The notes: generated by a model from the sequence alone, not told the origin. A stretch of DNA of 64,000 nt from Candidatus Methanomethylicia archaeon (GCA_038727515.1 JAVYVS010000002.1:75683-139682), one strand, 5' to 3'; counted from the first letter of the stretch, positions 16,767 to 48,834 are shown. A program made the numbers and translations.

Positions 16767-16779
16767 GACTTTGCAAGCC

Positions 16780-30604: not shown

Positions 30605-30746
30605 ATTTCACACCGTCCCTTTCCGTCCATACATATGGTTTTACATCTTAATATGTTTTTGCTAATTTATTAATTAATAATTTCTTGTATTTTGAATAAA
30701 CCTTAAAACTTATAAATTATTACAATTATATGCGTTTATTGAGTGT

Positions 30747-31088: not shown

Positions 31089-31092
31089 TTTT

Positions 31093-31518: not shown

Positions 31519-31533
31519 TGGAGGTTAAGTATC

Positions 31534-31995
31534 ATGTCGAGTTTTGATGTAAATTTTATTCTTAAAGATATTTCAAATGCATTTCCAAATAGGATTTTAG
31601 ATTATAGATTTGATGGTCCTAGGAGTGTATTTATGAGTGTTGATCCAAGTGCTTTACATGATGTTATTAAGTATTTAAAGGATAAATATGATTTAAGGCA
31701 TATTGTAACTATAACTGGGACTGATCTTGGTGATTCCATTGAATTAATCTATCATCTATCTCCTTTAAATCGTAGAATTCTTGTTAATATTAAAGTTAAG
31801 ATTCCTAGGGATAATCCACATTTCCCATCTATCGTTTCAATACTTCCTGGAGCCATTTTATATGAGAGAGAGGTTCATGATCTTTTGGGGGTTGTTTTTG
31901 ATGGCCATCCATCTCTTGAAAGACTTATCCTACCTGATGATTGGCCTGATGGTGTTTATCCCCTTAGGAAAGATTGGAAGGTGGAGGTGAAGTAG
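31534..31995 (+). CDS. NuoC-like (30 kDa) subunit
   Basis: 153 aa. Its position and size fit the NuoC/HycE N-terminal-domain family. Confidence 0.65.
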   Translation: MSSFDVNFILKDISNAFPNRILDYRFDGPRSVFMSVDPSALHDVIKYLKDKYDLRHIVTITGTDLGDSIELIYHLSPLNRRILVNIKVKIPRDNPHFPSIVSILPGAILYEREVHDLLGVVFDGHPSLERLILPDDWPDGVYPLRKDWKVEVK

Positions 31996-31996
31996 T

Positions 31997-33172: not shown

Positions 33173-34134
33173 TGATGGATCCATTAATATTTATTCTTAG
33201 AATCTTAATATTTCCTGGTATACTCTTCCTACTATTTCTAGCATTTATATTTGAGTGGGTTGATAGAAAGGCTTATGCTAGATTTCAAAATAGGATTGGC
33301 CCCCTATATGCTGGCCCTAGTGGAATCCTTCAACCATTAGCTGATTTCATTAAGCTTATGGCTAAAGAGGATATAACCCCAAAATATGTTGATTCCATCT
33401 TCTTCAATAACATTCCAATACTTGCAGTTGTTATACCATTATTTGCATCTCTATATATACCATTAGATGGTTCTCCAATTTTAATTCCCTTTGAAGGTGA
33501 TATCGTCCTACTACTAACTTTAATGACTATTTACACTATTTTTGTATTCATTGCTGGTTGGGCATCAACCAATAGGTTTAGTATTGTTGGTGCCACTAGA
33601 GCTATTCTACAATTTTTAGCTTATGAAATTCCAATGTTTATTTCAGCAGCTTCCGTTGTTATGTATGTTGGATCTACTTCTGTAACAATTATATCTCAAA
33701 ATCAATTGATACCTTTAGCTTTACTTCAACCAATAGGATTCATAGTCTTTATTACAGCTCTTCAAGCAGAACTTGAACGTATACCCTTCGATATCCCTGA
33801 AGCTGAAAGTGAAATTGTTGCTGGATGGCTTACTGAGTATTGTGGTCCAAAACTTGCTTTCCTAAGACTTGCTGAAGATTTAAAGCTAGTCTTTGGATCT
33901 GCTTTAGCTACCGCATTATTTCTAGGTGGTGGAAGCGGCCCTATACTTCCACCTATCGTCTGGTTTATTTTAAAGATGCTCTTCATAGTATTACTAAGCT
34001 CTTATATTAGATCTTTATTTGCTAGGTTGAGGATTGATCAAATGGTTTCAGGTTGTTGGAGGATTTTAATTCCATTATCAATTCTACAATTTGTTTTAAG
34101 TAGGTTTTTGGGGGTTGGTTTTAGATGGCTATGA
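33172..34134 (+). CDS. NuoH-like membrane subunit
   Basis: 320 aa, 8 TM helices, quinone-site-region motifs (RFQNRIGP, EAESEIVAG..EY). Confidence 0.8.
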   Translation: MMDPLIFILRILIFPGILFLLFLAFIFEWVDRKAYARFQNRIGPLYAGPSGILQPLADFIKLMAKEDITPKYVDSIFFNNIPILAVVIPLFASLYIPLDGSPILIPFEGDIVLLLTLMTIYTIFVFIAGWASTNRFSIVGATRAILQFLAYEIPMFISAASVVMYVGSTSVTIISQNQLIPLALLQPIGFIVFITALQAELERIPFDIPEAESEIVAGWLTEYCGPKLAFLRLAEDLKLVFGSALATALFLGGGSGPILPPIVWFILKMLFIVLLSSYIRSLFARLRIDQMVSGCWRILIPLSILQFVLSRFLGVGFRWL

Positions 34135-34481
34135 TACGTGAAGTATTTAAACACCTATTTAAACGACCAGTTACAGTTAAATATCCATTTGAGAGAACTC
34201 CTACTGCTGAGAGGTATAGGGGGAAGCATATATTCTATATTGATAGATGTGTTGGTTGTGGATTATGCGCCCGTGAATGTCCAGCTATGGCTATTGAACT
34301 AATTTCCTCAGATAAGACCATTAATGGTAGAAGACCAATATTCTATTTGGATAGATGTATATTTTGTATGCAGTGTGAAAGGATATGTCCCAGGGCAGCT
34401 ATACATTTAACACAATTCTATGAATTGGCTTCCCATGATCGTAAGTTGCTTGTACATAGTGAAGAAAAGGTTAGTTCTTGA
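34125..34481 (+). CDS. NuoI-like 2x[4Fe-4S] ferredoxin subunit
   Basis: CVGCGLCARECP and CIFCMQCERICP. Confidence 0.8.
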   Translation: MAMIREVFKHLFKRPVTVKYPFERTPTAERYRGKHIFYIDRCVGCGLCARECPAMAIELISSDKTINGRRPIFYLDRCIFCMQCERICPRAAIHLTQFYELASHDRKLLVHSEEKVSS

Positions 34482-34576
34482 AAATCAACGTTTTTTATCT
34501 TCCAATTATTTGTGTTTTAATAATTTGAGGCAATAAATTTAAGCTTCTAAGAATAGATGATAGTTAGCTGAGTAAA

Positions 34577-35839
34577 ATGAAGGTTTATGCAGATTTACAT
34601 TTACATTCAAAGTATAGTGGTGGTTCTAGTGTTCAAATGAATATTCCAACATTGGTTTCATATGCTTTAATTAAAGGTTTAAATCTTCTTGGTACTGGTG
34701 ATTGTCTACATCCAAGTTGGCTTAGAGAATTGAAAAACGATCTTGTACATGCTGGTGGAGGATTCTATCATTATAGGCTTAATTCCAACGTTTTCTTTAT
34801 TGTTAATTGTGAAGTTGGTACGGTTTTCGAATTTGGAGGTAAATCTAGAAGGGTTCATCATGTTATTTTAATGCCTAGTTTAGAGGTTGCTGAACAACTT
34901 TCCGATGTTTTATCACGTTATGGTGATGTAATTTCCAATGGGCGTCCAATATTTAATATGCATCCATCAGAACTTGTCGATATAGTTTTTAGTATTGAAT
35001 CCTCTTGTTTCATATTTCCAGCTCATATATGGACTCCTTGGTGGAGTATGTTTGGATCTTTTAGTGGTGTTGATAATGTTAAGGATTGTTATGGTGATAG
35101 AATTGATAAGATTTATGCTATTGAAACTGGTTTGAGTAGTGATCCAGAGATGAATTGGCGTGTAAGTCAATTGGATAGATTTTCAATTCTTAGCTTCTCA
35201 GATTCTCATTCACCATATCCATTTAGACTTGGTAGAGAAGCTTGTTTATTCGATCTTAATGATATGAATTATAGAGAACTTATAGAAGCTATTAAATTTA
35301 GGGAGAAGGGTAAGTTCTTAATGACTATAGAAGTTGATCCAGCTTATGGTAAATATCATTGGTCTGGTCATAGGAATTGTAATGTTGGGCCTATCCCTCC
35401 TGAAGAAGCTAGAAAAATGAATTATAAATGCCCAGTTTGTGGGAAAAAACTTACTAAGGGTGTTGATGATAGAGTTGAAGAACTTGCTGATAGAAGTAGA
35501 GGATTTAGACCTAAAAGTTATATACCCTTCATAAAGGTTTTACCATTACAAACTATAATAGCTTTCAGTATGGGTGTTAGTGAAGATGATTTTTCTAAAT
35601 TTAATAGTGGTAGAATTTGGGATATATATTCCAATCTAGTTTCTAAATTTGGTTCTGAATTTAATGTTTTATTGAATGCTCCAATAAATGAGATTGCAAA
35701 AATATCTTCTCAAACAATTGCATCTTACATTAAATGTATGAGGGAAGGTAAATATTCAATTACACCTGGTTTTGATGGTGTTTATGGCAAGATAAGTACA
35801 TTTGGTTTGAAAATGGATTTAAGAAACTTTATAACCTAA
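34577..35839 (+). CDS. endoQ: endonuclease Q (EndoQ), deaminated-base DNA repair nuclease
   Basis: PHP-like metal site DLHLHSKYSGG, a central region like Pyrococcus EndoQ (GTGDCLHPSWL, RRVHHVI, PAHIWTPW, LSSDPEMNW, FSDSHSPYPFRLGRE) and a Zn finger YKCPVCGKKLTKGVDDRVEELAD. Confidence 0.85.
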   Translation: MKVYADLHLHSKYSGGSSVQMNIPTLVSYALIKGLNLLGTGDCLHPSWLRELKNDLVHAGGGFYHYRLNSNVFFIVNCEVGTVFEFGGKSRRVHHVILMPSLEVAEQLSDVLSRYGDVISNGRPIFNMHPSELVDIVFSIESSCFIFPAHIWTPWWSMFGSFSGVDNVKDCYGDRIDKIYAIETGLSSDPEMNWRVSQLDRFSILSFSDSHSPYPFRLGREACLFDLNDMNYRELIEAIKFREKGKFLMTIEVDPAYGKYHWSGHRNCNVGPIPPEEARKMNYKCPVCGKKLTKGVDDRVEELADRSRGFRPKSYIPFIKVLPLQTIIAFSMGVSEDDFSKFNSGRIWDIYSNLVSKFGSEFNVLLNAPINEIAKISSQTIASYIKCMREGKYSITPGFDGVYGKISTFGLKMDLRNFIT

Positions 35840-35840
35840 A

Positions 35841-36515
35841 TCAACCTTTACCCTTCTCTATCAACAATTCCTTCCATCTACCTTTAATTATCATTATTAT
35901 AAGCCCCCTCGGGCCTTCTCTATCAAGTATATCTGCAACCTTTATCCAATCTATTTTCAATATGCTTAATGTTGTTATTGTTAGTATTATCAATGAAATC
36001 AATATTCCATATATATTTTCTTCACCGAAAACTATGTTTAAGTATTCCGTAAAGTATTTTCCAGTTAATGCTACTACTGTACTTAATATGATCTTTCCTA
36101 GCGTTGTAGCTATGAAGAATTTTATGAAGCTATATTTTATGAGTCCTAGTGGTATTATCACTACATCATCTGGTGATGGCGTTACTGTTACGAAGAATAC
36201 TGCTATCGCTCCATACTTACCCAATAATTCTTTAAATTTCTCTATTTGCTTTCTCTTTTCTTCACTTGTAATTAATTTACTTCCTTCAAATCCCAACATA
36301 TATACTACGCTTTTTCCAATTGCTCCACCAAAGCCACTCACAATTCCAAGTATTATTGGGTCTACTTGTAGGTATCCTGCCATATAATATATTGCCAATA
36401 AGTAGGGTATTGGTAGAAATGGTATAAAATTTCCAAGTATAGATACAATTAAAGCTCCAATATATCCATAGTTTAAGGCTATCTTCATCATTAAGTCAGA
36501 GATCCATTCAAACAA
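35841..36515 (-). CDS. DedA/SNARE-associated (VTT-domain) membrane protein
   Basis: 224 aa, with re-entrant-loop motifs (...GNFIPFLPIPY... and ...G.S..FF..) typical of the DedA family. Confidence 0.65.
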   Translation of the reverse strand: MFEWISDLMMKIALNYGYIGALIVSILGNFIPFLPIPYLLAIYYMAGYLQVDPIILGIVSGFGGAIGKSVVYMLGFEGSKLITSEEKRKQIEKFKELLGKYGAIAVFFVTVTPSPDDVVIIPLGLIKYSFIKFFIATTLGKIILSTVVALTGKYFTEYLNIVFGEENIYGILISLIILTITTLSILKIDWIKVADILDREGPRGLIIMIIKGRWKELLIEKGKG

Positions 36516-36618
36516 TCCTCTTCACTTACCTTTTATTTCTACATGTTAATAATGTTTGTTTTTTGGAAAGCTTTAAAACTTATTAATTATAAATTGCATA
36601 ATAGTTTGTTGTTGTGAG

Positions 36619-36876
36619 GTGAAGTTGTTGAGCTTTAATTTTGTTAGTTTGATTTTAGGTGTTTCCATAGTGGCTTTAGCAGTTTTAAGTTTGGAATTTA
36701 AGAAGATTATGCATTCAATCATAACTTTATGTGGTTTTAGTATTGTTTTGGCTATTGCATTCTTCTATTTATCTGCACCATTGGTTGGAGTATTTCAATT
36801 GGCTGTTTTAGCTGGTGCAGTTACAGTATTGTTTCTAGTTGCTTTAATGTTGACTGGTAAAGTGGAGGTGGATTAA
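36619..36876 (+). CDS. NuoJ-like subunit, N-terminal part (split J1)
   Basis: 85 aa, 3 TM helices, ...AVLAGAVTVLFLVALML resembles the NuoJ TM3 region. It is followed 1 nt later by a second small TM ORF. Confidence 0.55.
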   Translation: MKLLSFNFVSLILGVSIVALAVLSLEFKKIMHSIITLCGFSIVLAIAFFYLSAPLVGVFQLAVLAGAVTVLFLVALMLTGKVEVD

Positions 36877-36877
36877 C

Positions 36878-37156
36878 TTGAAGTTTAGTGAATTGATTGG
36901 AACTATGTTGGGTTTAGCTTTAGCCTTTATACTCACGCAACTCTTAGTTTATGGTGTTTCTAATGTTGGTTTATTTGCTTATGATAATGCTCCATTAACT
37001 ATTCTAAAGCCTGATTACTCCTTCCATAATCTGGGTGTTTATATAAGTGAACTTTTATGGGTTGATTGCAGTTTTGATGTAATAGCTCAAGCCATACTCA
37101 TATTTGCTTCAGCCATAGGTGTTATTGCACTTTTACGTGAGGAGGTGAAGCATTAA
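36878..37156 (+). CDS. NuoJ-like subunit, C-terminal part (split J2)
   Basis: 92 aa membrane protein between J1 and NuoK, as in Fpo/Nuo operons that have a split J. Confidence 0.45.
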   Translation: MKFSELIGTMLGLALAFILTQLLVYGVSNVGLFAYDNAPLTILKPDYSFHNLGVYISELLWVDCSFDVIAQAILIFASAIGVIALLREEVKH

Positions 37157-37473
37157 TGTCCACTGAACCATACACATTCATAGCTGTTTCAGGAGTTTTA
37201 TTTTGTATTGGCATGTACGGCCTTATGACTAAACGTAATATGATTAAAATGGTTATTTCACTTGAGATAATGTTTAGTTCAGCTATATTGAATTTAGTGA
37301 ATTTTTCATATTTTAGAATTTTTGGATTTATAGACCCAATGGCTCACGTTGTAGCTATAATTGCTATTTCTGTTGAAGCCTGTTTAATAGGTGTTGCTTT
37401 AGCATTTGTTATAAATGCTTATAAACATTATAAGACATTGGACATTAGAGAGTTGAGGAGGTTGAGGTGGTAG
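37156..37473 (+). CDS. NuoK-like subunit
   Basis: 105 aa, 3 TM helices, conserved membrane Glu in SLEIMF. Confidence 0.75.
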   Translation: MSTEPYTFIAVSGVLFCIGMYGLMTKRNMIKMVISLEIMFSSAILNLVNFSYFRIFGFIDPMAHVVAIIAISVEACLIGVALAFVINAYKHYKTLDIRELRRLRW

Positions 37474-38975
37474 GTTTTATGGAAATATTATATCCAATGC
37501 TAATATTAGCATTCTTCGGTGTAACAACGCCAATTATTGGTTGGATTTGTGAGAGGTATGGTTTACGTAATCTTGTTAGCGGTTGGGCTTTATTTGGTTT
37601 TCTAACTTCCCTAATGGCTTGCCTTAAACTAGTAGGTTTACTCTATGAAAAGCCAATTATAAGGTATAGTATATACCAAGCTGTTGATGGTTTTAAAATT
37701 GGCTTTACAGTTTTAGATTGGCTTAGCTTCACATTTACCCTTGGCTTCATCCTTTTAGGTTTAATATCCACTTTGCATTCAATTGATTACATGTCTCATG
37801 ACACAGGTTTACCAGCTTACTACTCCCTACTATTGCTAATGGTTTGCGGTATGATTGGAGTTATTATGGCAGGTGACTTCCTAACGCTATATGTATTCTG
37901 GGAGTTGATGAGCATATCCTCATATTGTTTGGTTGGATTTAGAAAGCATCTCTGGGAGCCTGTGGAAGCAGGCTTCAAATATCTATTGATGAGCGCTGTA
38001 GGTTCAGCCTTCATATTATTCTCAATGTCATATCTATATGGTTTAACTGGATCCTTAAGCTTCGCTCAAATAACTCTCTCCCTAATGAATGCTAAATCTT
38101 CTCCACTACTATACCTACTATTCATATTATTGATCGTAGGCTTCGGCGTTAAAGCTGCTATTGTACCATTTCATTCATGGCTTCCAGATGCACATCCAGC
38201 TGCCCCCAGCCCTATAAGTGCTATGCTTTCAGGTGTAGTAATAAAAACTGGCGTTTATGCAATAATAAGAACTTCATATCTAATCTTTGATGTTTCAATT
38301 GTGGATTATAGATTGATGTTAGCTTTCCTATCAGTATTGACCATGAGTGTTGGAAACATTCTAGCTTTAGTTCAAAAGGATATTAAACGTTTACTTGCAT
38401 ATTCAAGTATAGCTCAAATTGGATATTTACTATTGGCTTTATCCTTAGGAACGGAATTTGGTTTAATGGCTGGTATTGTACACTTCTTTAATCATGCCTT
38501 AATGAAGGGACTTGCATTTCTCTGCGCTGGATCAATCATACATGAACTTAATACGAGGAATCTTGATGAAATTATTGGTGTTGGTAGAAGAATGCCTATA
38601 ACTGGTGTGTCACTATCTATAGCACTTCTCTCACTAGCTGGAATGCCATTTCTCAATGGTTTTATAAGTAAGTATTTAATATTTGCAGCAGCCATAGATG
38701 CTCAAGCATATTTATTGACAGCCATAGGATTACTAAATAGTGCTATTGGAGTAGTATACTATATCCGTGTAATACAGACAATATTTAGGAAGCCTATTGA
38801 AAGTGTTATGAAGGCAAGTGAATCTTCACCATTTATACTGTCTTCCTTAATAATCCTATCAGTACTTTGCATAGTCTTAGGCGTATGGCCTCAACCATTA
38901 TCTTCAATGGCTGAAACAGCAGCACACTTCACAATGCAAAAACTCCTTTACATAAGGTCGATAATACCATTATAA
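37467..38975 (+). CDS. NuoN/NuoM-like antiporter-type subunit
   Basis: 502 aa, Mrp-antiporter fold motifs (FVFWELMS, WLPDAHPAAPSPISAML, AYSSIAQIGY). Confidence 0.75.
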   Translation: MVGFMEILYPMLILAFFGVTTPIIGWICERYGLRNLVSGWALFGFLTSLMACLKLVGLLYEKPIIRYSIYQAVDGFKIGFTVLDWLSFTFTLGFILLGLISTLHSIDYMSHDTGLPAYYSLLLLMVCGMIGVIMAGDFLTLYVFWELMSISSYCLVGFRKHLWEPVEAGFKYLLMSAVGSAFILFSMSYLYGLTGSLSFAQITLSLMNAKSSPLLYLLFILLIVGFGVKAAIVPFHSWLPDAHPAAPSPISAMLSGVVIKTGVYAIIRTSYLIFDVSIVDYRLMLAFLSVLTMSVGNILALVQKDIKRLLAYSSIAQIGYLLLALSLGTEFGLMAGIVHFFNHALMKGLAFLCAGSIIHELNTRNLDEIIGVGRRMPITGVSLSIALLSLAGMPFLNGFISKYLIFAAAIDAQAYLLTAIGLLNSAIGVVYYIRVIQTIFRKPIESVMKASESSPFILSSLIILSVLCIVLGVWPQPLSSMAETAAHFTMQKLLYIRSIIPL

Positions 38976-39050
38976 ACGGTATACAATAAAAAATTTAATA
39001 ATCACATATCTACATAATCTTTATCGAAAATTTCCTCCTCTTCTGCGGAG

Positions 39051-40664
39051 TTGTGCGATATGTCAAGTATAATTAAGTCAGCTGAAATGTGCAAAGTTCA
39101 ACTAGTGTTGCCAAAGCACTATTACTATGATGTCAAATTGGCTTTAATCAATTTAAAGGTTTTTCATCCAGATGAATGGTGGGTTAATGAAGAATTTGTA
39201 GAGTTTATTAAAGAATTGAAAGCTGAAGAAAATATAGATTTAAAATCGTTAAGTAAACCTCATGAGGAAAGTGCTAAGTTTAAATCTTTATTGGATAAGG
39301 TGAATCGATTAATTAATACCCTTGGGTTGGAAGCATCAACTATTACATTTAAGCTAAAGCATGTAGATAGGAGTTATTTAAATGATCTTGAGAATAAGCT
39401 AAACTTCATTGAATCAAAAATCAATGAGTTTTCACAATCCCCTGAAAACGTCGAACTTAAAGTTAAGTTAAATGAAGTATGCCAGAATTATGAAAATATT
39501 ATTTTAGAAGCAAAACAAGTTTTTGAAAGTGTTTTAGATAGGGATGAAAATACCTTCCATAGTGATTACTTTTCATATATGTTTGGATGGGTTCCAAAGG
39601 ATAGGGTTAACGAAATTATTGAAACCATTGAGAAAACTACAAATAAATCAGTAGTAATCTCAGTTTCACAACCTGGCAAACATGATAATCCCCCATTTCT
39701 ATCTAAATCTCCAAAACCTCTAAAACCATTTGAATCTCTAATAAAAACTTATGATATTCCATCAACCCATGAAATTAATCCAACATTAATCGTTAGTATA
39801 ACCTTCCCATTACTATTTGGATTAGCTTTCGCGGATGTTGGCCATGGACTCTTACTAGCACTATTTGGAATTGCAACTTACATACTTAAACGTAAAGGGT
39901 TCTCTGGCGGTGAAATGATCAATTTAGTTCTCTCTGGAGCTGAATTATATATTTTATGTGGTATTGCAGCTATATTTGGCGGTTTAATGTTCGGTGAATT
40001 CTTCGGTTTTCACATACATCATCCACCTCTAGAATTCATACTTGAAGCTATACCGGGAATTGGTCATGCTTTTAGTCCATTGGAAGAACCTATGAAAATG
40101 TTTAAACTCTCACTAATGGTTGGAATTATGCATATAAGTTTAGGATTAACATTAAGTGTAATCAACGCTGTACTTGAGGGAGAATATAAAAAGGCTTTCT
40201 TTGGACATATATGCTGGTTATGGTTCTATTTAGGTGCAATGTACTTAGGTTTATTCGTATATAAATTTGATATTAGTAAATGGATGTCTGGCAGTTTAAC
40301 CATACCATTAGTGGTAGCACCATTAGTCTTAATGCTTGTAGGAATGATGTTAACTGAAAATCCAATAGATGGCTTCGCTCATACATTTGAAGCAGCAATA
40401 AGCTCACTTTCACATACAGTATCATATGGACGTATACTTGCATTATCACTTTCCCATGGAATGTTAAGTCAATTATTATCTTCAGCAATCCCAGCACTTG
40501 GAGCTGCAGGCTATATAGTCCTAGCTATAGGAACAATAACCCTAGTAATGGCTCTTGAAGGACTTGTATCATTCACACATGTACTAAGGCTTACATGGGT
40601 TGAATTTGGCTTTAAATACTTCCGTGGTGGTGGAGAAGAATATAAACCTCTAGGTGTTAAATAA
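39051..40664 (+). CDS. atpI: A-type/V-type ATPase subunit I (a subunit; Ao sector)
   Basis: Soluble N-terminal domain followed by TM helices with ...HTVSYGRILALSLSHGML... (essential Arg) and C-terminal LRLTWVEFGFKYFRGGG. At 537 aa it is shorter than typical. Confidence 0.75.
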   Translation: MCDMSSIIKSAEMCKVQLVLPKHYYYDVKLALINLKVFHPDEWWVNEEFVEFIKELKAEENIDLKSLSKPHEESAKFKSLLDKVNRLINTLGLEASTITFKLKHVDRSYLNDLENKLNFIESKINEFSQSPENVELKVKLNEVCQNYENIILEAKQVFESVLDRDENTFHSDYFSYMFGWVPKDRVNEIIETIEKTTNKSVVISVSQPGKHDNPPFLSKSPKPLKPFESLIKTYDIPSTHEINPTLIVSITFPLLFGLAFADVGHGLLLALFGIATYILKRKGFSGGEMINLVLSGAELYILCGIAAIFGGLMFGEFFGFHIHHPPLEFILEAIPGIGHAFSPLEEPMKMFKLSLMVGIMHISLGLTLSVINAVLEGEYKKAFFGHICWLWFYLGAMYLGLFVYKFDISKWMSGSLTIPLVVAPLVLMLVGMMLTENPIDGFAHTFEAAISSLSHTVSYGRILALSLSHGMLSQLLSSAIPALGAAGYIVLAIGTITLVMALEGLVSFTHVLRLTWVEFGFKYFRGGGEEYKPLGVK

Positions 40665-40732
40665 ATGCATAAATCAATAACGTTTATAAATAAATCAACA
40701 TTATTGTAGTAATAGTTGTTGGAGGAAGAAAT

Positions 40733-41182
40733 ATGGATGAAACGATAATCGGTCTTATAGGCGTTCTACTTTCAAGTTGCATACCAATATCAGGTGCAGC
40801 CTACGGAATTGTAACCGCAGGTATATCTATGGCTGGAGCTGGAACTGAACGCCCTGAAATAGTTACAAAGCTACTTTTAGCAGTTGTATTAGCTGAAGCT
40901 ATAGGAATCTATGGATTACTTACCTCAATAATGCTCATAGGAAAACTCTCCATAATCCTTGCTTCATATGAAGCAGCCATGAAAGCTTTATCAGCAGGTT
41001 TAGTAATGGCTGTATGTGGTTTATTAGCTTCAATAGCAATTGCATATACTGGATCAGCTATGGCTGGAGCTGGAGTTGAAAAACCTGAAATAGTTACAAA
41101 GACTCTTCTAGCAGTTGTATTAGCTGAAGCTTTAGCAATCTATGGATTACTAATATCCATAATGTTAATAGGCACTATATAA
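40733..41182 (+). CDS. atpK: A-type ATPase proteolipid subunit K (c subunit), tandem double-hairpin form
   Basis: 149 aa made of two repeats, each with AGxGxE..RPEIVTK..LLAVVLAEA.GIYGLL and a conserved ion-binding Glu. Confidence 0.8.
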   Translation: MDETIIGLIGVLLSSCIPISGAAYGIVTAGISMAGAGTERPEIVTKLLLAVVLAEAIGIYGLLTSIMLIGKLSIILASYEAAMKALSAGLVMAVCGLLASIAIAYTGSAMAGAGVEKPEIVTKTLLAVVLAEALAIYGLLISIMLIGTI

Positions 41183-41195
41183 GTGGAGTGCCTAA

Positions 41196-41864
41196 ATGAT
41201 GAATAGTAAAAGCAACGAACTAGAGAAACTAAATGAACAATTAAAGTATACTAGGAGAAAGTATAAAAAGACCATTATAAATTCAAAGATAAAACTTTTG
41301 AAAACAAAAATTGCATCCAAAAATTGTATAACCAAAATTGAAGCTTATAAAGGGAATTGCATCAATAGAGTTGTAAATACTAAAGATATGACTATTAAAC
41401 TTGTAGAAAATTCCATCAAAAATAATGTTAATATGATAAGCAGTGAGGGTTTCGTTCCTGATGAAAGTCTAGTTAAACTTTACTCTTTAATTGATAAAAC
41501 AACATACATTCTAAAGTCCAAACCATCAAAGATACCAAGTTTTAGACAATACATTTCTAAAGTTTTTTCTGCGATTTCCAATAGCTTATCTACTCTACGT
41601 ATATACTTTGCTAGAAAGCTTGCTTTTCCACCAATACTTTATTCTAAATCTTTCACTATGTCTATAATTGAAGTTAAATCATGGCATAGTAACTTATATT
41701 TAAGATTGACTACTGGATTTAAAGATTTTAGAAAAACTTTATTGAATTATAAATCTAAGCTTGACAAATATGATTCAATTTTACTTTCATCAAAGGCTAG
41801 GTGTAATAATGCCATCCAAGTATCTATATCCAAGGGTAAAACTATTACTCGAAGATTTCTATAA
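41196..41864 (+). CDS. hypothetical protein (Lys/Ser-rich)
   Basis: 222-aa ORF after atpK with an N-terminal coiled-coil-like stretch, perhaps a diverged stalk subunit. No clear motif. Confidence 0.3.
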   Translation: MMNSKSNELEKLNEQLKYTRRKYKKTIINSKIKLLKTKIASKNCITKIEAYKGNCINRVVNTKDMTIKLVENSIKNNVNMISSEGFVPDESLVKLYSLIDKTTYILKSKPSKIPSFRQYISKVFSAISNSLSTLRIYFARKLAFPPILYSKSFTMSIIEVKSWHSNLYLRLTTGFKDFRKTLLNYKSKLDKYDSILLSSKARCNNAIQVSISKGKTITRRFL

Positions 41865-41880
41865 TAAATATTATAAATAT

Positions 41881-42936
41881 TTAAATTATTATTTCCTCCA
41901 TAATTTTTCGTTTTGGTATTTCAAGTGATTTCCCATATATTATCACTTTTAAATTTCTTATTTCAGTCCATTTCTTAGTTAAGTATGCCAGTGTTGGTGA
42001 TATATCGTATTGAAATCCCTTTTTCCAAACTTTTTGATAACCCTTATATATTTCTTTATTAAATAGTTTCTCTAATTCTTCTATTCCTCCCTTATTTATT
42101 GCTTCTATACTTTGCTTTAATAACGGTTTATATTCTTTTTCCATTAATTCGGTTAACACTTCCTTTTGATCTTCTTTTTCAAAAGCTCTTCTTATCTTTT
42201 GCATATTTATTTTGTATGTTGGGGTTATGATGTTTTCTTCTAGTTCATTCCAATCTATTTTAAGTTTCTTTGCTCTTAGGGTGTTTTTTATATTTGTTAA
42301 ATCTATTTCTATTCCCAGCATTTCTCTAACACTTTTTGAGCTTTTACCATCAAGTCTTTTTGCTTCATTTATTATAGCTTCATATACTATTTTATCTATT
42401 TTTGCTTCAACAATTTTTGCATCTTCTTCTTTAAATTCTTTTTCAAATATTTTATGTATTGGTATCGGCACTCCTATTTCAACTAGTTTTTCCAATAATT
42501 CCCTTAGGTTTTTTGATTCTTCATATACTTTAACGTATTCTTCAATTTTGAGTCCTAGTGGGATGGGTGTTAAATGTTGTTTTAATCTTTCTACTGAAGC
42601 TCCTAATGTTTTTAATCTTATTGCAGCCTTTATGTTTTCAGCTTCATATTTCATCATATATAATGCTATTACTCTCATTGCTTGTTTCGGAAGCCATTTT
42701 AATACTTTTAGATATGATCTCGTCAATGATTTTATCAATATTTTCTCCATTTCTATTGGTGTTGGTGTTTCTTGAAGACCTCTTACTTCTTCTCTATATG
42801 GAGTTTCCATTAATACCTTTACAATTTCTTTATAGGGTGCTTCTATGATTTTATTGTAATCCTCTTTTCTCAGGTATTCCCTTTTTAATCCCCTAATTTT
42901 TGTGTTTATGAATCCATATCTAATTATTCCAAGCAA
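41881..42936 (-). CDS. atpC: A-type ATPase subunit C (d subunit)-like
   Basis: 351-aa all-helical protein resembling the AtpC/V0-d family, on the opposite strand from atpI/K. Confidence 0.55.
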   Translation of the reverse strand: MLGIIRYGFINTKIRGLKREYLRKEDYNKIIEAPYKEIVKVLMETPYREEVRGLQETPTPIEMEKILIKSLTRSYLKVLKWLPKQAMRVIALYMMKYEAENIKAAIRLKTLGASVERLKQHLTPIPLGLKIEEYVKVYEESKNLRELLEKLVEIGVPIPIHKIFEKEFKEEDAKIVEAKIDKIVYEAIINEAKRLDGKSSKSVREMLGIEIDLTNIKNTLRAKKLKIDWNELEENIITPTYKINMQKIRRAFEKEDQKEVLTELMEKEYKPLLKQSIEAINKGGIEELEKLFNKEIYKGYQKVWKKGFQYDISPTLAYLTKKWTEIRNLKVIIYGKSLEIPKRKIMEEIII

Positions 42937-42991
42937 AGTTATCAGCCTACACTTTATTCTTTAATACGCTAAATACCAATATTGTTATTCA

Positions 42992-43543
42992 CTATTTATA
43001 CTTAATTGGTTTTAAGATTATGTATGTTGTTATTATCAATAACCATATTACTACTCCAATAACTACTCCAATTCCAGCATAAAACTCACTTATCCTACTT
43101 CCAATAGTATATCCCATTAATATTAATGGTATCATTAAAGATAGTAATGCTATACTCCTACTTATCATGAATCTAAATAATCTCTTACCTTCATCTTCAA
43201 TTCTTTCATCTACAACTTTCTCCTTCACCTCTTTGACTTTCTCTTTTACTTTAATACTTTCTTTCTCCTCTAATCCCCCTCTTCTTGAGATAACGGTTGC
43301 CTTTTCAATTACTTCAGATAATGTATTGTATGGTTTATTATGCCTTAAGTTTATTCTACATGTTTCATATAATATTTTCATTGGTATCCATTCTTCTCCA
43401 TTAATCCATTTTTCTAATTCTTCTTCCTTTATCTTTAATCTTTTTAGATATTCATCTCTTCCTAATGTTTCAATAGCTGTTTTTAAAGCTTTCAAAACTT
43501 TTTCTGTAGGTTCAATATATATTTCTTCTGTCATTTCATCCAT
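42992..43543 (-). CDS. hypothetical protein with C-terminal double TM anchor
   Basis: 183 aa with a charged coiled-coil-like N-terminal part and two C-terminal TM helices, upstream of atpC on the same strand. Confidence 0.4.
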   Translation of the reverse strand: MDEMTEEIYIEPTEKVLKALKTAIETLGRDEYLKRLKIKEEELEKWINGEEWIPMKILYETCRINLRHNKPYNTLSEVIEKATVISRRGGLEEKESIKVKEKVKEVKEKVVDERIEDEGKRLFRFMISRSIALLSLMIPLILMGYTIGSRISEFYAGIGVVIGVVIWLLIITTYIILKPIKYK

Positions 43544-43650
43544 ACCATATCTTTATATGCGTATCAAAATTATTTAAATCGTTAGTTTTTTATATAGTTG
43601 TTATTTGAATTCTTTTTAGATTTTTAATTTTATTCGTATGGACTTTAGAG

Positions 43651-45825
43651 GTGGATGATTTGCTTAATTATTCACCTTGGCTTGTTTGGATTATTCCAAT
43701 TATAGGTGCACTTTTAACACCTTTAATTGCACGTTTAGGTGATAGAATTCGAGATATCTCTGCTGTCTTCTTCTCTTTTCTAGCTGCTTTAATGGCTACA
43801 GTAAACTTTTCATATGTTATGTCTGGAGGTATGTATATTCCAGGGGTTGGATATGTTAAGGTTCCCATTGATTGGCGTTTTAAATGGTTTATTGTTCCTG
43901 GGTTCCATTTAGATGTTGGAGTTTTACTGGATCCTCTTAGTGCTTTAATGGGTGTTATTGTTGCTTGGATTTCATTTTTAATTATGATTTATAGCTTGGG
44001 TTATATGCATGGTGAAGAAGGTTTAACTAGATACTGGTTTTTCATGAATTTCTTTATTGGGAATATGCTTCTACTCGTCATGTCCGATAATATTCTACAG
44101 ATGTTATTTGGGTGGGAGGGTGTTGGACTATGTAGTTATCAATTGATTGGCTTCTATTATAGTGATGAAAGGAAGCGTTGGATTGGCAATGTTCCTCCAT
44201 CACATGCTGGTATGAAAGCCTTCATAACCACTAAAATTGGAGATATATCCCTCATGATAGCTTCCTTCATAATATTCACTATATCTGGAACTTTTAATTT
44301 CCTAGATCTTCAAGCAAATTATGAATGGATAATTGAACTTGCTAAGATGGGGTTGATAATTCCAGTTGTATTATTATTCTTTGGTGGACCTATTGGGAAA
44401 TCTGCTCAATTTCCATTGCATGAATGGCTTCCAGAGGCTATGGCAGGCCCTACTTCAGTTTCAGCATTAATACATGCTGCTACTATGGTTAAAGCTGGAG
44501 TTTACCTTGTTGCTAGAATGGTTCCAATATTTTATGGAAGTTTTACCCATGCGATTGCACATGTTCATGGATTAGCCATTGAAAACTTAATTTTACAAGC
44601 TAGAAACAGCTTCTTCTTAACTGTTGCATGGATTGGTGCATTTACAGCTTTTCTAGCTGCTACTCAAGCCATGGTTAGTAGAGAATTGAAGAAAGTTCTT
44701 GCGTATTCTACGATTTCTCAAATTGGTTATATGATGTTAGGTTTAGGTGCTGGAGGTTTAATGGAAAATGTAGCTATAGGTTTTGTTGCTGGAGTATTTC
44801 ATTTAGCTAGTCATGCGATCTTTAAAGCTTTGCTATTTATGGCTGCTGGTGCAGTTATTCATGCATGTGAGAGTACTGATATGTTTAATATGGGTGGTAT
44901 TAGACGTGATATGCCTATAACTTTTGTTTGTATGCTTATTGGAGCTTTATCTCTTTCAGGTATACCTCCACTTAGTGGTTTTTGGAGTAAAGAAGCTGTT
45001 TTCACAGCTTGTTTAGTTTCTGGTCAGTATATACTATTGGCTTTTGCAGCTGTAACTGCCGCTATAACATTCTTCTATAGTTTAAGAATGATTGCAATAA
45101 CATTTCTTGGAGAGAAGAGTGAGCATTTAGAGGAATTGGAACATGAAGGTCATCATGTTCATGAAGTTTCAAAGGTTATGTGGATTCCATATGCAATATT
45201 AGCTATCTCAACTATTGCCATAGGTTTGATAGGTCCATTTTTCGAAGAGTACTTACATGAATTCCTAGAGCCTTCTATTCATATGATTCATCATGAAATT
45301 GCAATTTCAAGTGTTGTTTATGGTGCTGAAGTTGAAGTTTCTGGTTTTCCAACGAAATTAACAACTATGCTAATAACTTTATGCATGCTTATCTTAGGAG
45401 GTTATCCAGCATATTTAATGTATATTTCACGTAAAGTTGATCCTGAATCCTTTGTCGAATCTCATGGGTTAAAGGGCATATACAACTTCTTATGGAATAG
45501 ATGGTATATTAATCCAACCTATTATGGTGTATTTGTATATCCTTTGATTCATGGTAGTGTTAAAGTCTTTAGAGGCTTTGAGAAAGCTGTTATTGATAGA
45601 TTTAATTATGTTTTAGCGAATATAGTATTGAGCTTTAGCAATATTGTTTATAGATATTTTGAAAAGCCTATTTTAGATGGATTTAATTATTTTGTAGCTA
45701 ATGTTTTCATGGTGTTTTCACAGATTTTCAGAAGAATTCAAACTGGTGTTTCTTCATTTAACATTATGGGTATTGGTTTAGGTATACTAATATTGATATT
45801 AATGATACTATTCGGTTTTATTTAA
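43651..45825 (+). CDS. NuoL-like antiporter-type subunit
   Basis: 724 aa with a core antiporter fold (WLPEAMAGPTSVSALIHAATMV) and a long C-terminal extension for the lateral helix. Confidence 0.8.
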   Translation: MDDLLNYSPWLVWIIPIIGALLTPLIARLGDRIRDISAVFFSFLAALMATVNFSYVMSGGMYIPGVGYVKVPIDWRFKWFIVPGFHLDVGVLLDPLSALMGVIVAWISFLIMIYSLGYMHGEEGLTRYWFFMNFFIGNMLLLVMSDNILQMLFGWEGVGLCSYQLIGFYYSDERKRWIGNVPPSHAGMKAFITTKIGDISLMIASFIIFTISGTFNFLDLQANYEWIIELAKMGLIIPVVLLFFGGPIGKSAQFPLHEWLPEAMAGPTSVSALIHAATMVKAGVYLVARMVPIFYGSFTHAIAHVHGLAIENLILQARNSFFLTVAWIGAFTAFLAATQAMVSRELKKVLAYSTISQIGYMMLGLGAGGLMENVAIGFVAGVFHLASHAIFKALLFMAAGAVIHACESTDMFNMGGIRRDMPITFVCMLIGALSLSGIPPLSGFWSKEAVFTACLVSGQYILLAFAAVTAAITFFYSLRMIAITFLGEKSEHLEELEHEGHHVHEVSKVMWIPYAILAISTIAIGLIGPFFEEYLHEFLEPSIHMIHHEIAISSVVYGAEVEVSGFPTKLTTMLITLCMLILGGYPAYLMYISRKVDPESFVESHGLKGIYNFLWNRWYINPTYYGVFVYPLIHGSVKVFRGFEKAVIDRFNYVLANIVLSFSNIVYRYFEKPILDGFNYFVANVFMVFSQIFRRIQTGVSSFNIMGIGLGILILILMILFGFI

Positions 45826-45853
45826 TTTAAATTTTCTTTATATTAATTTTGGA

Positions 45854-47284
45854 GTGGTGAATTTGAAAGTTAGAGTTAGAGGTATATACTCTACAGCTCT
45901 ATCTAAACTTTTAATTGATGAAGGTTATAGTATTGTTCAACCGTCAAAGGTTATTAAGGATAGATTTAATATTGGCGATGAAATGGATTATATGTTTTAT
46001 GATGTTGATATTCTTGATCGTGATGATAAGCATGGAGTATACATTTTGACTTCCAATGAGAATTTAAGAACTATCATAGACATTATTCATAGAAATCTTT
46101 TTGATGCTATTATTAGAATTGCACCGTATGATGTCAATGGAATTTATAAAGGTGTTGTAGAAGCTATTGATAAAGTTAGAAATTTAGCTTTTATATCCAT
46201 TATGCCTAAGCTCTTAGGTGTATTACCGTTATCTAGAGATTCCCCTCTTAAAGTTGGTGATGAAATTCTTGTTCAAGTGGATAAGAGTAGTTTAGGTTTA
46301 AGGATTCCACGTTTAACTACACGTATAGGTTTAGCTGGTAGGTATGTTGTATTATTTAAAGGTGATGGTTTAAAGTTTAGTAGGAAGCTTACTGGAAGTT
46401 TCATTGATTATATGAATATATCTGAGACATTAAAAGGAGTTCTGCCTGAAACTTTTGGAGTTATCATTAGATCTTCTTTTAAAAGTGCTTCTAAAGATGA
46501 TATTTTAAATGAAATTTCAAATTTATTGGATAACTACAATCGATTGATGGATTTATTTAGGGTTTCACCTTCAAGAAGGCTGATAGTTAATGGGTTAAAG
46601 GTATTGGATGTTGAGTTTCCATATAATTCTAAGAGGATTCTTGATTCAATTAGGAGTTTTGTTACTTCAACAATAAATTTTCATCATTACTTTAAGATTT
46701 TAGGTGAAAATTATTCTAAAATGGTTGATAATGTTGAATCCCTATTATCTAAAGGTTTGAATGTAGATGATACCTTACTTAATATAGATCTTCTTAGAGG
46801 GGAATTTGCTTCTAATTTGAGAGTTATTGAACATGTTAAATTGAATGGAAAAGTCATATTGTTTAGGAACATTGAATCCATTGATTTTAATGGTAAGTTT
46901 TTAACTATTTATAGGAGGGTTAAATCGCCTGGATTTTATGATGGTTTAAACATAGTTAAGATGGTTGGTGATAAAATTGTTACGAAGATTGGTTTTGGAG
47001 ATTGGTATTATGTTTCTCGATATTATTCTTCTGATGGTCAATTTCTAGGTTCATATATTAACATAAATACTCCAATTGAAATTTATGGTGATAGATTGAG
47101 ATATGTGGATTTAGAAGTTGATGTATGTGTTAAATCAAATGGTGAATTTAAAATTTTAGATATGGATCATTTATATAAAGCCTTTAAAATGGGTGTTGTA
47201 TCTGAGAGTTTATTTAGATTCATATCCAAACTTGTGGATAATATTAAATCTAAAATTATACATGGAGAATTTGATGATATTTGA
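45854..47284 (+). CDS. FAU-1/RNase E-like (DUF402) RNA-binding protein candidate
   Basis: 476 aa. The N-terminus (VRVRGIYSTALSKLLIDEGYSIVQPS) and overall length resemble archaeal FAU-1. Assigned from recall only. Confidence 0.45.
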   Translation: MVNLKVRVRGIYSTALSKLLIDEGYSIVQPSKVIKDRFNIGDEMDYMFYDVDILDRDDKHGVYILTSNENLRTIIDIIHRNLFDAIIRIAPYDVNGIYKGVVEAIDKVRNLAFISIMPKLLGVLPLSRDSPLKVGDEILVQVDKSSLGLRIPRLTTRIGLAGRYVVLFKGDGLKFSRKLTGSFIDYMNISETLKGVLPETFGVIIRSSFKSASKDDILNEISNLLDNYNRLMDLFRVSPSRRLIVNGLKVLDVEFPYNSKRILDSIRSFVTSTINFHHYFKILGENYSKMVDNVESLLSKGLNVDDTLLNIDLLRGEFASNLRVIEHVKLNGKVILFRNIESIDFNGKFLTIYRRVKSPGFYDGLNIVKMVGDKIVTKIGFGDWYYVSRYYSSDGQFLGSYININTPIEIYGDRLRYVDLEVDVCVKSNGEFKILDMDHLYKAFKMGVVSESLFRFISKLVDNIKSKIIHGEFDDI

Positions 47285-47337
47285 ATAATAAAGGTTTTAT
47301 ATTGACTTGAGATAAATTTTGTTGTATTTATTGGGGT

Positions 47338-48834
47338 GTGGTTTGCGTGTCGTTTGAAGGCTTAGTTTTATCATTAATTTTAGTTCCAATATGCTTTCTA
47401 CCGGTAACGTATATAGCTGGTAGACGCCTTGGTAGTAAATGTGGTTGGGTCACCTTTGTCCCATTACTATACTCATTTTTAATATCATTAATACTTCTAT
47501 CCGCTGTTTCTCTTAAGGGTTCCATCTACGTGGTATTTCCACTAGCTCCTTCTGTTGGTTTAAATTTTGGATTTCTAATTGATGGTTTAAGTTTACCCAT
47601 AGTGTTTACAATAACATTGTTATGTATGGTTGTTTCAATATTCTCAATACCCTACATGGAGCATCATATTGGTGAAGATAAAGCTCAACATGCAGCATAC
47701 TATGCCTTATATCTACTTTATGCATTGGGGATGGTTGGTACAGCTTTATCCACAAATTTAATTCAATTCTACTTCTTCTGGGAGCTTATGCTTCTTCCAT
47801 CTTGGGCTTTAATAAATATTTGGGGTTATGGTGAAAGGGAGAAGATTGCATTGAAATACTTTATATATACACATGTGGGTGCATTAGCTCTTTTAGCTGG
47901 TATATTAAGCTTATACTCCATATTTGGGACATTTGAACTTCCATTAATAATATCGTTAAGTAAGTTTATTCATGTTGGAGATATGATTAAGTGGATTACC
48001 ATAGCCATGTTCTTTGGATTTGCTGTTAAAATGGCTATAGTCCCATTACATACATGGCTTCCAGATGCACATGCTGAAGCTCCAACACCTATAAGTGCAC
48101 TTTTATCTCCAGCTATGATTGGACTTGGTGGATATGCAACTGTTAGGATAATATATTCTGCTTTTCCAGAGGTTTGGGATTCCCTCAGTTTCATATTGAG
48201 TCTTCTAGCTTTAATAACAATGGTTTATTCTGGTGCTATGGCTTTAGCTCAAGATGATATTAAGAGGCTCTTAGCATATTCCAGTGCTTCACAGATGGGA
48301 TATATTTTAATGGGTCTTGCAAGTGCAGATCCTATGGGTATTGGTGGAGCTATGTATCATTATGTCAGTCATGGAACTTGTAAAGCTATACTCTTCATGG
48401 TTGCAGGGGCAATAATTCTTGAAGCTCATGGTTTGAGAAGTATATCCAAACTTGGAGGTTTAGCTAAGAAAATGCCTTTAACAGCTACAATGGCGTTAAT
48501 AGGATTTCTAGGTATTGCTGGTACACCTCCATTAAATGGTTTTCAAAGTGAATGGCTTATATTTACTGGTGCATTTCATGGAGCTATTGAAGCTCATGAT
48601 ACCTTAAGACTTATTGTAGTTGCACTTGGACTTATTGGAAGTGTATTAACAGCTGGTTATGCCCTTTGGACTATGAGGAGAGTATTCTTTGGAGAATTAC
48701 GTGAAGGTTTAGAAGAAGTTCATGAACCATCAATATACGTTTTAGCTCCAATGATGGTCCTAGCAATATTCACAGTTATACTTGGCATATACCCAAGGCT
48801 TTTAATGGATTTATTAACATCCTTTCTAAGTTAA
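47338..48834 (+). CDS. NuoM/NuoN-like antiporter-type subunit
   Basis: 498 aa with motifs FFWELMLLPS, WLPDAHAEAPTPISALL and AYSSASQMGY. Confidence 0.75.
   Translation: MVCVSFEGLVLSLILVPICFLPVTYIAGRRLGSKCGWVTFVPLLYSFLISLILLSAVSLKGSIYVVFPLAPSVGLNFGFLIDGLSLPIVFTITLLCMVVSIFSIPYMEHHIGEDKAQHAAYYALYLLYALGMVGTALSTNLIQFYFFWELMLLPSWALINIWGYGEREKIALKYFIYTHVGALALLAGILSLYSIFGTFELPLIISLSKFIHVGDMIKWITIAMFFGFAVKMAIVPLHTWLPDAHAEAPTPISALLSPAMIGLGGYATVRIIYSAFPEVWDSLSFILSLLALITMVYSGAMALAQDDIKRLLAYSSASQMGYILMGLASADPMGIGGAMYHYVSHGTCKAILFMVAGAIILEAHGLRSISKLGGLAKKMPLTATMALIGFLGIAGTPPLNGFQSEWLIFTGAFHGAIEAHDTLRLIVVALGLIGSVLTAGYALWTMRRVFFGELREGLEEVHEPSIYVLAPMMVLAIFTVILGIYPRLLMDLLTSFLS

Follow-up and report, generated by a model that had tools for sequence, protein, structure and literature searches.

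What are genes for the membrane sector of an ATP synthase doing inside a hydrogenase gene cluster? The question is raised by a 64,000-nucleotide stretch of DNA from Candidatus Methanomethylicia archaeon (GCA_038727515.1 JAVYVS010000002.1:75683-139682), a hot-spring organism, hereafter the window, in which a cluster of Fpo/Nuo-like (complex-I-like) hydrogenase genes is interrupted three times by other genes, among them atpI, atpK and atpC of an A-type ATP synthase. An earlier note on this DNA had described the three insertions, had pointed out that the genes of the membrane (Ao) sector occur without those of the catalytic (A1) sector, and had proposed that either the cluster is transcribed as several units or the Ao genes are co-regulated with the membrane arm of the hydrogenase. 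Taken together, our results make it likely that two ordinary chemiosmotic machines are interleaved at this locus, and that their proximity has been selected.

Every gene named in the earlier note was recovered in its place by matches to Pfam, NCBIfam or the PDB. The interruptions do lie within positions 34482-47337, to which the cluster had been confined, but the hydrogenase genes extend from 30747 to 48834 and encode 11 of the 11 Fpo/Nuo-like subunits (Pfam, NCBIfam). They form three co-oriented blocks, A-B-C-D-H-I, J1-J2-K-N and L...M. The first break is formed by EndoQ and an oppositely oriented DedA gene, the second by atpI-atpK-ORF222 (ORF, open reading frame) together with atpC and ORF183 on the minus strand, and the third by a FAU-1-type gene. 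The latter two had been placed between N/M and L and between L and M/N; both are present, and their positions can be sharpened to between nuoN and nuoL for the atp block and between nuoL and nuoM for FAU-1. In line with the earlier description, the flanking nuo-like genes are co-oriented with short gaps, the intergenic distance between co-oriented neighbours ranging from -10 to 95 bp. The G+C content of the window is ~31%, with a slight dip to 0.29 at 42-44 kb. J-K-N-L-M is the native order in the clade and occurs without interruption in locus L013. The hydrogenase genes of the window are the following:

30747..31088, plus strand: nuoA/hfoA-like membrane subunit (Pfam Oxidored_q4, E = 3.2e-6)
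31093..31518, plus strand: nuoB-like hydrogenase small subunit (Pfam Oxidored_q6, E = 2.7e-33)
31534..31995, plus strand: nuoC-like subunit (Pfam Complex1_30kDa, E = 3.5e-34)
31997..33172, plus strand: nuoD-like [NiFe]-hydrogenase large subunit, group 4g (Pfam Complex1_49kDa and NiFeSe_Hases)
33172..34134, plus strand: nuoH-like subunit (Pfam NADHdh, E = 5.6e-93)
34125..34481, plus strand: nuoI-like 2x[4Fe-4S] subunit (Pfam Fer4 families)
36619..36876, plus strand: N-terminal half of nuoJ, MbhD-like, 85 residues (Pfam Oxidored_q3, MbhD)
36878..37156, plus strand: C-terminal half of nuoJ (ORF92), 92 residues (alignment to the full-length NuoJ of locus L016)
37156..37473, plus strand: nuoK-like subunit (Pfam Oxidored_q2, E = 1.6e-23)
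37467..38975, plus strand: nuoN/MrpD-like antiporter subunit (Pfam Proton_antipo_M, E = 5e-82)
43651..45825, plus strand: nuoL-like antiporter subunit, 724 residues with a long C-terminal extension (Pfam Proton_antipo_N, _M and _C)
47338..48834, plus strand: nuoM-like antiporter subunit (NCBIfam NDH_I_M, 339.4 > 263.8)

The NuoD-like protein scores above the NCBIfam cut-off for NuoD (381 > 360) and contains all four Ni-Fe cysteines, in CGICNVPH (L1) and DPCYCCTER (L2). Measured against the published definitions of these motifs (L1, C[GS][ILV]C[AGNS]xxH; L2, [DE][PL]Cx[AGST]Cx[DE][RL]; PMC7886697), L1 is an exact match and L2 has Cys at one [AGST] position. The NuoL-like protein passes NCBIfam NDH_I_L (497 > 407.5), and the NuoN/MrpD-like protein reaches 278 bits with NCBIfam NuoN, under the cut-off of 332.6. 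NuoJ is split into two genes, the first aligning to residues 10-77 and ORF92 to residues 94-176 of a 181-residue NuoJ; against the full-length NuoJ of L016, ORF92 gave E = 3.3e-9 as a single sequence and 1.3e-15 as a profile. Two small nuoJ genes were also observed in L006 and L013, and a single NuoJ of 163-181 residues in L014 and L016. No NuoEFG or FpoFO domain, that is, no module for NADH or F420 input, was found among the cluster genes and the ten flanking genes scanned.

This inventory is that of Hfo, an 11-subunit Fpo/Nuo-like [NiFe] hydrogenase of subgroup 4g (Loh et al. 2021, PMC7886697), which is known from Bathyarchaeia, Ca. Methanomethylicus and Pyrodictium (group 4g-6) and in which ferredoxin/H2 turnover is presumably coupled to ion translocation; according to the same source, none of the group 4g enzymes has been biochemically characterised. 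The window cluster shares with Hfo the same 11 families (A, B, C, D, H, I, J, K, L, M and N), the lack of a NuoEFG/FpoFO module and the Ni-Fe cysteines of L1 and L2. Whereas Hfo clusters are described as having a contiguous Fpo/Nuo organisation, the present one is cut at I/J, N/L and L/M; moreover, N precedes L, NuoJ is split and L2 carries Cys for [AGST]. The loss of contiguity affects only the organisation of the cluster and not its subunit content. As the orthologous gene of a sister metagenome-assembled genome (MAG) is listed as a group 4g catalytic subunit (Kohtz 2022, PMC9723716), the enzyme can be provisionally assigned to the Hfo/group 4g type, the label being taken from this listing.

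The block between nuoN and nuoL comprises five genes:

39051..40664, plus strand: atpI, a subunit of the A-type ATP synthase, short, ~537 residues (Pfam V_ATPase_I, E = 5e-49)
40733..41182, plus strand: atpK, 4-helix duplicated c subunit, 149 residues (Pfam ATP-synt_C, two stretches)
41196..41864, plus strand: ORF222, basic helical protein after atpK (without Pfam or NCBIfam match)
41881..42936, minus strand: atpC, V-type d/AC39 subunit (Pfam vATP-synt_AC39, E = 1.3e-55, full length)
42992..43543, minus strand: ORF183, predicted to be membrane-anchored, with a possibly helix-turn-helix (HTH)-like N-domain (adjoins a-subunit genes in relatives)

In AtpI, the motif with the essential Arg, SYGRILALSLSHG, aligns with SYLRLWALSLAH of human a1, and the C-terminal motif LRLTWVEF aligns with LRLHWVEF of the same protein. 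AtpK carries Glu in both hairpins, in LAEAIGIYG of transmembrane helix (TM) 2 and in LAEALAIYG of TM4. AtpC matches Pfam PF01992 over its full length (189.6 bits against a cut-off of 29) and scores 148.8 with NCBIfam AhaC, under the equivalog cut-off of 240.5. In both a-subunit motifs, in the proteolipid nature of the c subunit and in the presence of an AC39/d subunit, the set resembles the membrane sector of A/V-type ATP synthases (the Thermus thermophilus V/A-ATPase, PDB 6qum family, and the eukaryotic V-ATPase Vo). It differs in its a subunit, whose N-terminal cytoplasmic domain is shorter, by ~100 residues, than its counterpart in Thermus subunit I. Among c subunits, the 4-helix duplication of AtpK is nearest to the eukaryotic 16-kDa V-type proteolipids; whereas the aligned eukaryotic proteins keep the ion-binding Glu only in TM4, AtpK has it in both hairpins. 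Each Glu is followed by Ala (AEA), and we take this to fit H+ rather than Na+ coupling.

Where, then, are the A1 genes? Homologues of atpA, B, D, E, F and H and a second atpI were not found in the 64-kb window (tblastn, E <= 0.01), and the complete atp operon nearby that the earlier note had named as speaking against its view is likewise missing there. The observation of Ao genes without A1 genes thus holds for the window. It probably does not hold for the genome, as judged from the sister genomes. According to the supplement of Kohtz 2022 (PMC9723716), each Culexarchaeia MAG has one atpK and one atpC, both near the group 4g catalytic subunit. On contig Ga0272449_1000001 (PMC9723716), atpC is gene 117, atpK gene 119, atpI gene 120 and the hydrogenase large subunit gene 129, while atpH-E-F-A-B are genes 387-383 of the same contig and atpD stands alone as gene 464; a second atpI lies on another contig in most sister MAGs (PMC9723716 supplement). 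These are orthologous genes, L003 and L017 being contigs of those MAGs, and atpC, K and I lie there 9-12 genes from the hydrogenase catalytic subunit. The passages of that article retrieved by a term search treat the group 4g hydrogenase and the V/A-type ATP synthase as separate systems and do not mention Ao genes inside the hydrogenase cluster.

The separation of A1 and Ao genes is ordinary for the phylum, since atp genes are commonly scattered in Crenarchaeota/Thermoproteota. In Thermoproteus tenax (Siebers et al. 2011, PMC3189178), the genes for the ATP synthase are dispersed over several places, as has been described for Crenarchaeota, atpI is present in two copies and the nuo genes are split over four operons. 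T. tenax thus resembles the present case in having atp genes at several loci, two atpI genes, and split nuo operons, a complex-I-like cluster there being likewise interrupted by foreign genes. It differs in that its atpI-1 is divergent to a H+-pyrophosphatase gene, and a nesting of the a-c-C genes in the complex-I-like cluster is not reported for it. Moreover, on contigs of the Bathyarchaeia type (L006, L013, L015 and L025), an a-subunit gene of the same short family (~530-550 residues), a gene for a 4-helix c subunit and atpC belong to a complete atp cluster that has one A1 set; in L010, L013, L015 and L025, such a cluster, again with one A1 set, includes an orthologous I-K-C trio accompanied by ORF183-like and ORF222-like genes. 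With one atpK and one atpC per sister MAG and the A1 genes elsewhere, the oddity of an Ao without A1 therefore largely dissolves. The embedded atpI, atpK and atpC most likely supply the only A-type ATP synthase of the cell with its membrane sector and rotor socket; that atpK and atpC are single-copy in the window's own genome is suggested by the sister MAGs.

The comparison brought to light further a-subunit genes. Still shorter a subunits (~414-460 residues), which form a family of their own, without the coiled-coil/distal cytoplasmic part and with the essential Arg kept, are encoded at L004:14069-15460 (minus strand), L010:10001-11263, L013:10001-11260, L015:7420-8679 and L012:9845-11125. 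They are found together with the ~540-residue a subunit and only one set of c, C and A1, and their genes often directly follow atpA-atpB or adjoin a gene for a HAD hydrolase. L012 had been considered as the second atpI of Culexarchaeum and was dropped, its G+C content of 45% indicating another lineage. In 2011, T. tenax was given as the only archaeon with two atpI copies; evidently, the duplication is widespread. L009 (10001-17283) has two complete Ao sets beside one A1 set (E-F-A-B-D), one consisting of I with 548, a 4-helix c with 149 and C with 373 residues, the other of I with 554, a 2-helix c with 105 and C with 354 residues, which may represent alternative rotors for one catalytic head. 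The atpA reading frame of L023 comprises 1138 residues, about twice the usual length, and probably contains an intein; this was seen at one metagenomic locus.

The arrangement found in the window is shared by its relatives. Close AtpI homologues are from MAGs likewise named "Candidatus Methanomethylicia archaeon", from Ca. Culexarchaeum nevadense (70% identity) and from Ca. Culexmicrobium profundum (47%). Strand by strand, the gene order of the window is identical in L001, L002, L003, L007, L008 and L017. L004, from Culexmicrobium with an AtpI 47% identical, has the same backbone with additional passengers, namely TtuA on the minus strand between nuoN and atpI, RtcA before FAU-1, and a second, short atpI on the minus strand with ORF177 before nuoL. 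The order is thus seen in at least 7 other assemblies and in both Culexarchaeia genera, the assemblies compared having been obtained from NCBI, JGI, Logan and ENA, and the AtpI protein cluster is found on more than 20 contigs, the longest of 1.58 Mb and with identical AtpI and ORF183 proteins.

The nesting is a local case of a wider association. For the survey, 80 further loci were collected from metagenomes with an AtpI profile (the best 80 of 433 confirmed loci), and all loci were annotated locally with hidden Markov models. A lineage was defined as an AtpI cluster at 60% identity, and some of these clusters are paralogues on one locus. Lineages were scored as linked when an antiporter-like gene of at least 300 residues lay within ~6.3 kb or less, and as unlinked when no such gene was found despite flanks of at least 6 kb. 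Linkage of atp genes to nuoL/M/N-like genes was observed in 18 of the 24 assessable AtpI lineages; 19 others could not be judged.

The linked loci differ widely in order and orientation. A full atp operon stands beside L-M-N-K-J-J-H in L006, an atp cluster is followed by nuoM and nuoL in L010, and atpC lies directly downstream of nuoJ-K-L-M-N in L011 and L016. In L013 and L015, J-J-K-N-L-M is followed by atpA-atpB and the short I, by an ORF183-like gene with I and K, and by C-x-D-F-E-H on the opposite strand. L014, on a 1.25-Mb contig, contains an I-K-C trio without A1 genes between two antiporter gene sets; L022 has I-C-K inserted between M-L and N-K-H-D, and in L025 the entire atp set is located between antiporter genes. 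In L019, the genes nuoK-L-M-N-ORF183-atpC-atpI-atpK all point in the same direction, separated by gaps of 14-111 bp. The closest analogue of the window outside Culexarchaeia is L029, where I-K is followed by C-ORF183 on the opposite strand and then by L-M-atpA; varied linked arrangements were also found in L034, L041 and L096. Since linkage persists through so many rearrangements of order and orientation, these data suggest that selection acts on proximity and keeps the genes of the gradient maker and the gradient user together. A search of the full-text literature, incompletely covered so that an earlier description is possible, revealed no report in which atp genes lie within Hfo/nuo clusters.

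Two further genes recur in this neighbourhood. Those for a TrmI/GCD14 tRNA methyltransferase and a Methyltrn_RNA_2 protein (53697-54479 and 29718-30314 of the window) are also found near atp/nuo genes in L011, L014 and L016, and their recurrence within a few kb suggests a larger conserved neighbourhood.

ORF183 and ORF222 represent two unannotated families that travel with the atp genes. ORF183 gave no match to Pfam or NCBIfam; a word-indexed search yielded only 7 close relatives, and an exhaustive search of 1.84 billion proteins 17 representative clusters. Its homologues adjoin atpI genes in L005, L010, L013, L015, L019 and L029. The AlphaFold2 (AF2) model (predicted local distance difference test, pLDDT, 71) shows an N-domain of five helices that is joined by a charged, disordered linker to membrane helices at the C-terminus. 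Almost all of the top 50 Foldseek matches in the PDB are XRE-type HTH domains, a family with a five-helix lambda-repressor-like DNA-binding fold; the TM-score is at most 0.68 on the target, the matches fall short of significance (E >= 0.28), and the multiple sequence alignment behind the model has 7 sequences. In a 538-residue relative the N-domain is duplicated, one copy having a classic HTH-like sequence. With low confidence, the model would make ORF183 a membrane-anchored regulator. ORF222 is likewise without Pfam or NCBIfam match and evolves fast, being 36-49% identical among relatives whose AtpK proteins are 89-97% identical. Members of its family, which share the motif PPxxY/F..S..E(L/V)..W, follow atpK in Culexarchaeia including L004, and in L005, L010 and L025. 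The single-sequence AF2 model is all-helical and unusable (pLDDT 56). The possibility that ORF222 is a divergent peripheral-stalk subunit was rejected at the sensitivity of hhalign, which gave <1% against AtpE and AtpH, the E-versus-H control reaching 94%.

With DedA and atpC-ORF183 on the opposite strand between the nuo blocks, we infer at least five transcription units for the locus and at least three promoters for the hydrogenase genes, so that the first alternative of the earlier note, several units, is borne out by the layout and by boxes in front of nuoA, nuoJ and nuoL. The boxes were judged from intergenic alignments among relatives:

30701..30720, plus strand: promoter-like box CCTTAAAACTTATAAATTAT upstream of nuoA, with a putative promoter role
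36571..36590, plus strand: promoter-like box CTTTAAAACTTATTAATTAT upstream of nuoJ, within the 103 bp that separate the divergent DedA and nuoJ1 genes
43577..43594, plus strand: promoter-like box AATCGTTAGTTTTTTATA upstream of nuoL

The first two are a near-identical pair of the form C(C/T)TTAAAACTTAT(A/T)AATTAT, located ~45-60 nt upstream of nuoA and nuoJ and conserved at orthologous positions in L002 and L003. The box upstream of nuoL, AATCGTTAnnTTTTTTATA, is separate and conserved in the window, L002, L003 and L004. All three may represent TATA/BRE-like promoters (BRE, transcription factor B recognition element). No run of T5+ was found in the window between nuoN, atpI, atpK and ORF222, and read-through from nuoN to ORF222 is therefore possible there. 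In Culexmicrobium, the opposite-strand TtuA gene between nuoN and atpI implies that atpI has its own promoter and that read-through between these two genes is not conserved. Co-regulation of the Ao genes with the membrane arm of the hydrogenase, the second alternative of the earlier note, is plausible and would fit the broad linkage of atp to nuoL/M/N-like genes. A T6 run follows the nuoI stop codon. Similar (A/T)CGTT...TTTTTAT(A) elements are located at 34486-34503 after nuoI, at 40683-40700 before atpK and at 43577-43594 before nuoL; they could be BRE/TATA promoters or, after nuoI, a T-run terminator. The only match of an Rfam scan of the window was a single tRNA, and nothing was matched within the cluster.

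We therefore propose the following for the locus as a whole. By analogy with Hfo, the hydrogenase would oxidise reduced ferredoxin, make H2 and pump ions via NuoN, NuoL and NuoM, and its three gene blocks, A-B-C-D-H-I, J1-J2-K-N and L-M, would match structural modules. AtpI (a), AtpK (4-helix c) and AtpC (C/d), nested between nuoN and nuoL, would form the membrane sector and rotor adaptor of the ATP synthase, with the catalytic A1 genes elsewhere in the genome and ORF222 and ORF183 as lineage-specific companions of the atp block. EndoQ, DedA and FAU-1 would be housekeeping passengers acquired in the ancestor of the Culexarchaeia. The first transcription unit would comprise nuoA-I and possibly continue into EndoQ, the second DedA, the third nuoJ-N with a possible continuation into atpI-K-ORF222, the fourth ORF183-atpC and the fifth nuoL-FAU1-nuoM. 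The nesting would then be the local form of the widespread atp-nuoL/M/N linkage, selected for coordinated expression or membrane assembly.

Several points weigh against this proposal. There was no linkage in 6 of the 24 assessable lineages; the survey favours relatives of the query, its lineages are phylogenetically non-independent, and 19 could not be assessed. The single atpK and atpC rest on KEGG Orthology (KO) annotation of incomplete sister MAGs, in which small c genes are easily missed, and the second atpI in most of these MAGs could belong to a further Ao set that is partly unannotated, a single A1 set being indeed accompanied by two Ao sets in L009. As to the boxes, they are AT-rich motifs in a genome of 31% G+C, and the window-wide scan with the nuoA/nuoJ motif is circular, its 2 matches being the two source sites, so that only conservation in relatives counts.

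The most serious alternative is that the arrangement is a neutral relic: atp and nuo genes lay side by side in an ancestor, and scrambling of the Thermoproteota type stranded the Ao genes without functional meaning. In its favour, the cluster holds unrelated passengers (EndoQ, DedA and FAU-1 here; TtuA, RtcA and ORF177 in L004), the relocation of the A1 genes in Culexarchaeia has done no obvious harm, a scattered distribution of atp and nuo genes is general in Crenarchaeota, and the six unlinked lineages point in the same direction. However, pure drift is expected to erase linkage, and here linkage has outlived many rearrangements, as seen in L006, L010, L011/L016, L013/L015, L014, L019, L022, L025, L029, L034, L041 and L096, with the atp and nuo sets forming one tight co-directional run in L019. 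We consider a neutral relic possible, though clearly the less probable explanation.

It is improbable, in our view, that the linkage reflects physical or assembly coupling, such as a supercomplex or shared assembly line of the hydrogenase's distal pump module and Ao with a localised proton circuit, in which ORF183 would sense the state of the membrane and regulate both machines and the short a paralogue (I2) would be an alternative stator. Even less probable is that the a-c-C trio is a stand-alone or hydrogenase-coupled device, for instance a regulated proton conduit or a rotor on the hydrogenase membrane arm. It would account for the lack of A1 genes within 64 kb, for the trios without A1 that are nested among antiporter genes in L014, L019 and L022, and for the shortened N-terminal domain of the a subunit. 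Against it, the sister genomes have a full A1 set and no other atpK or atpC to partner it, the same short a-subunit family serves in the complete atp clusters of L006, L013, L015 and L025, and the motifs for rotary proton transport against the c-ring are all kept. AtpC (subunit d) is the socket for the central stalk and therefore makes sense only together with A1.

Finally, that the interrupted order is an assembly or binning chimera, as the metagenomic origin of the genome and the slight G+C dip at 42-44 kb might suggest, and for which the earlier note had looked to uninterrupted clusters in relatives, can be dismissed, because close relatives show the same interrupted cluster in independent assemblies (L001-L004, L007, L008 and L017, seven loci), the published gene numbering of the sister MAGs agrees with it, short, conserved intergenic regions span every junction, and an order shared across the class must have been inherited. 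Two interleaved chemiosmotic machines kept in proximity by selection thus remain the favoured reading.

The passenger genes are of diverse kinds:

34577..35839, plus strand: EndoQ, 420 residues (PDB 5zb8, PfuEndoQ, E = 1.7e-66, residues 3-407)
35841..36515, minus strand: DedA/VTT-domain membrane protein (Pfam VTT_dom, E = 3.1e-16)
45854..47284, plus strand: FAU-1-type RNase E/G-like protein (Pfam DUF402 and RNase_E_G)

The similarity to the solved Pyrococcus furiosus EndoQ is full-length and covers the PHP-type N-terminus and the Zn-ribbon, in agreement with the earlier identification; with 5zb8/7k30, E is about 1e-66 over residues 3-407, and CPVCGKKLTKGV aligns with CPKCGGIIKKGV. EndoQ occupies the same position in L002, L003, L004 and L007. 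The DedA gene, correctly placed by the earlier note in opposite orientation between nuoI and nuoJ, keeps its position and strand in all Culexarchaeia loci, as the FAU-1 gene keeps its place between nuoL and nuoM. The product of the latter is a predicted archaeal RNase E/G-like protein, with matches to RNase_E_G (PF10150, E = 4.7e-8) and, at the C-terminus, to DUF402 (PF04167, E = 1.4e-15).

Outside the cluster, a 168-residue reading frame at 48826-49332 (minus strand) shares 9 bp with the end of nuoM and is found at the corresponding place in L002 and L007; like a 523-residue reading frame at 52129-53700 (minus strand), it has no Pfam match. The stretch 14348-17500 has a G+C content of ~40% compared with ~31% elsewhere and contains a tRNA gene (14348-14422, minus strand), an ORF of the phage integrase family (14568-15293), an FeS-domain ORF and an ArsR-type HTH ORF. 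This content is reminiscent of a small element integrated at a tRNA gene, or of what is left of one.

As both machines belong to established types, the finding reveals no new biochemistry. It corrects the impression of an orphan Ao and confirms that the scrambled cluster is genuine. What appears to be new is the habitual linkage of atp genes to, or their nesting in, complex-I-like antiporter genes on contigs from Bathyarchaeia, Culexarchaeia and related archaea. ORF183 and ORF222 emerge as candidates for proteins that assist or regulate the ATP synthases of archaea. Should co-regulation or co-assembly underlie the linkage, it would provide a simple genomic handle on how minimal fermentative archaea balance their only major gradient generator against the ATP synthase.

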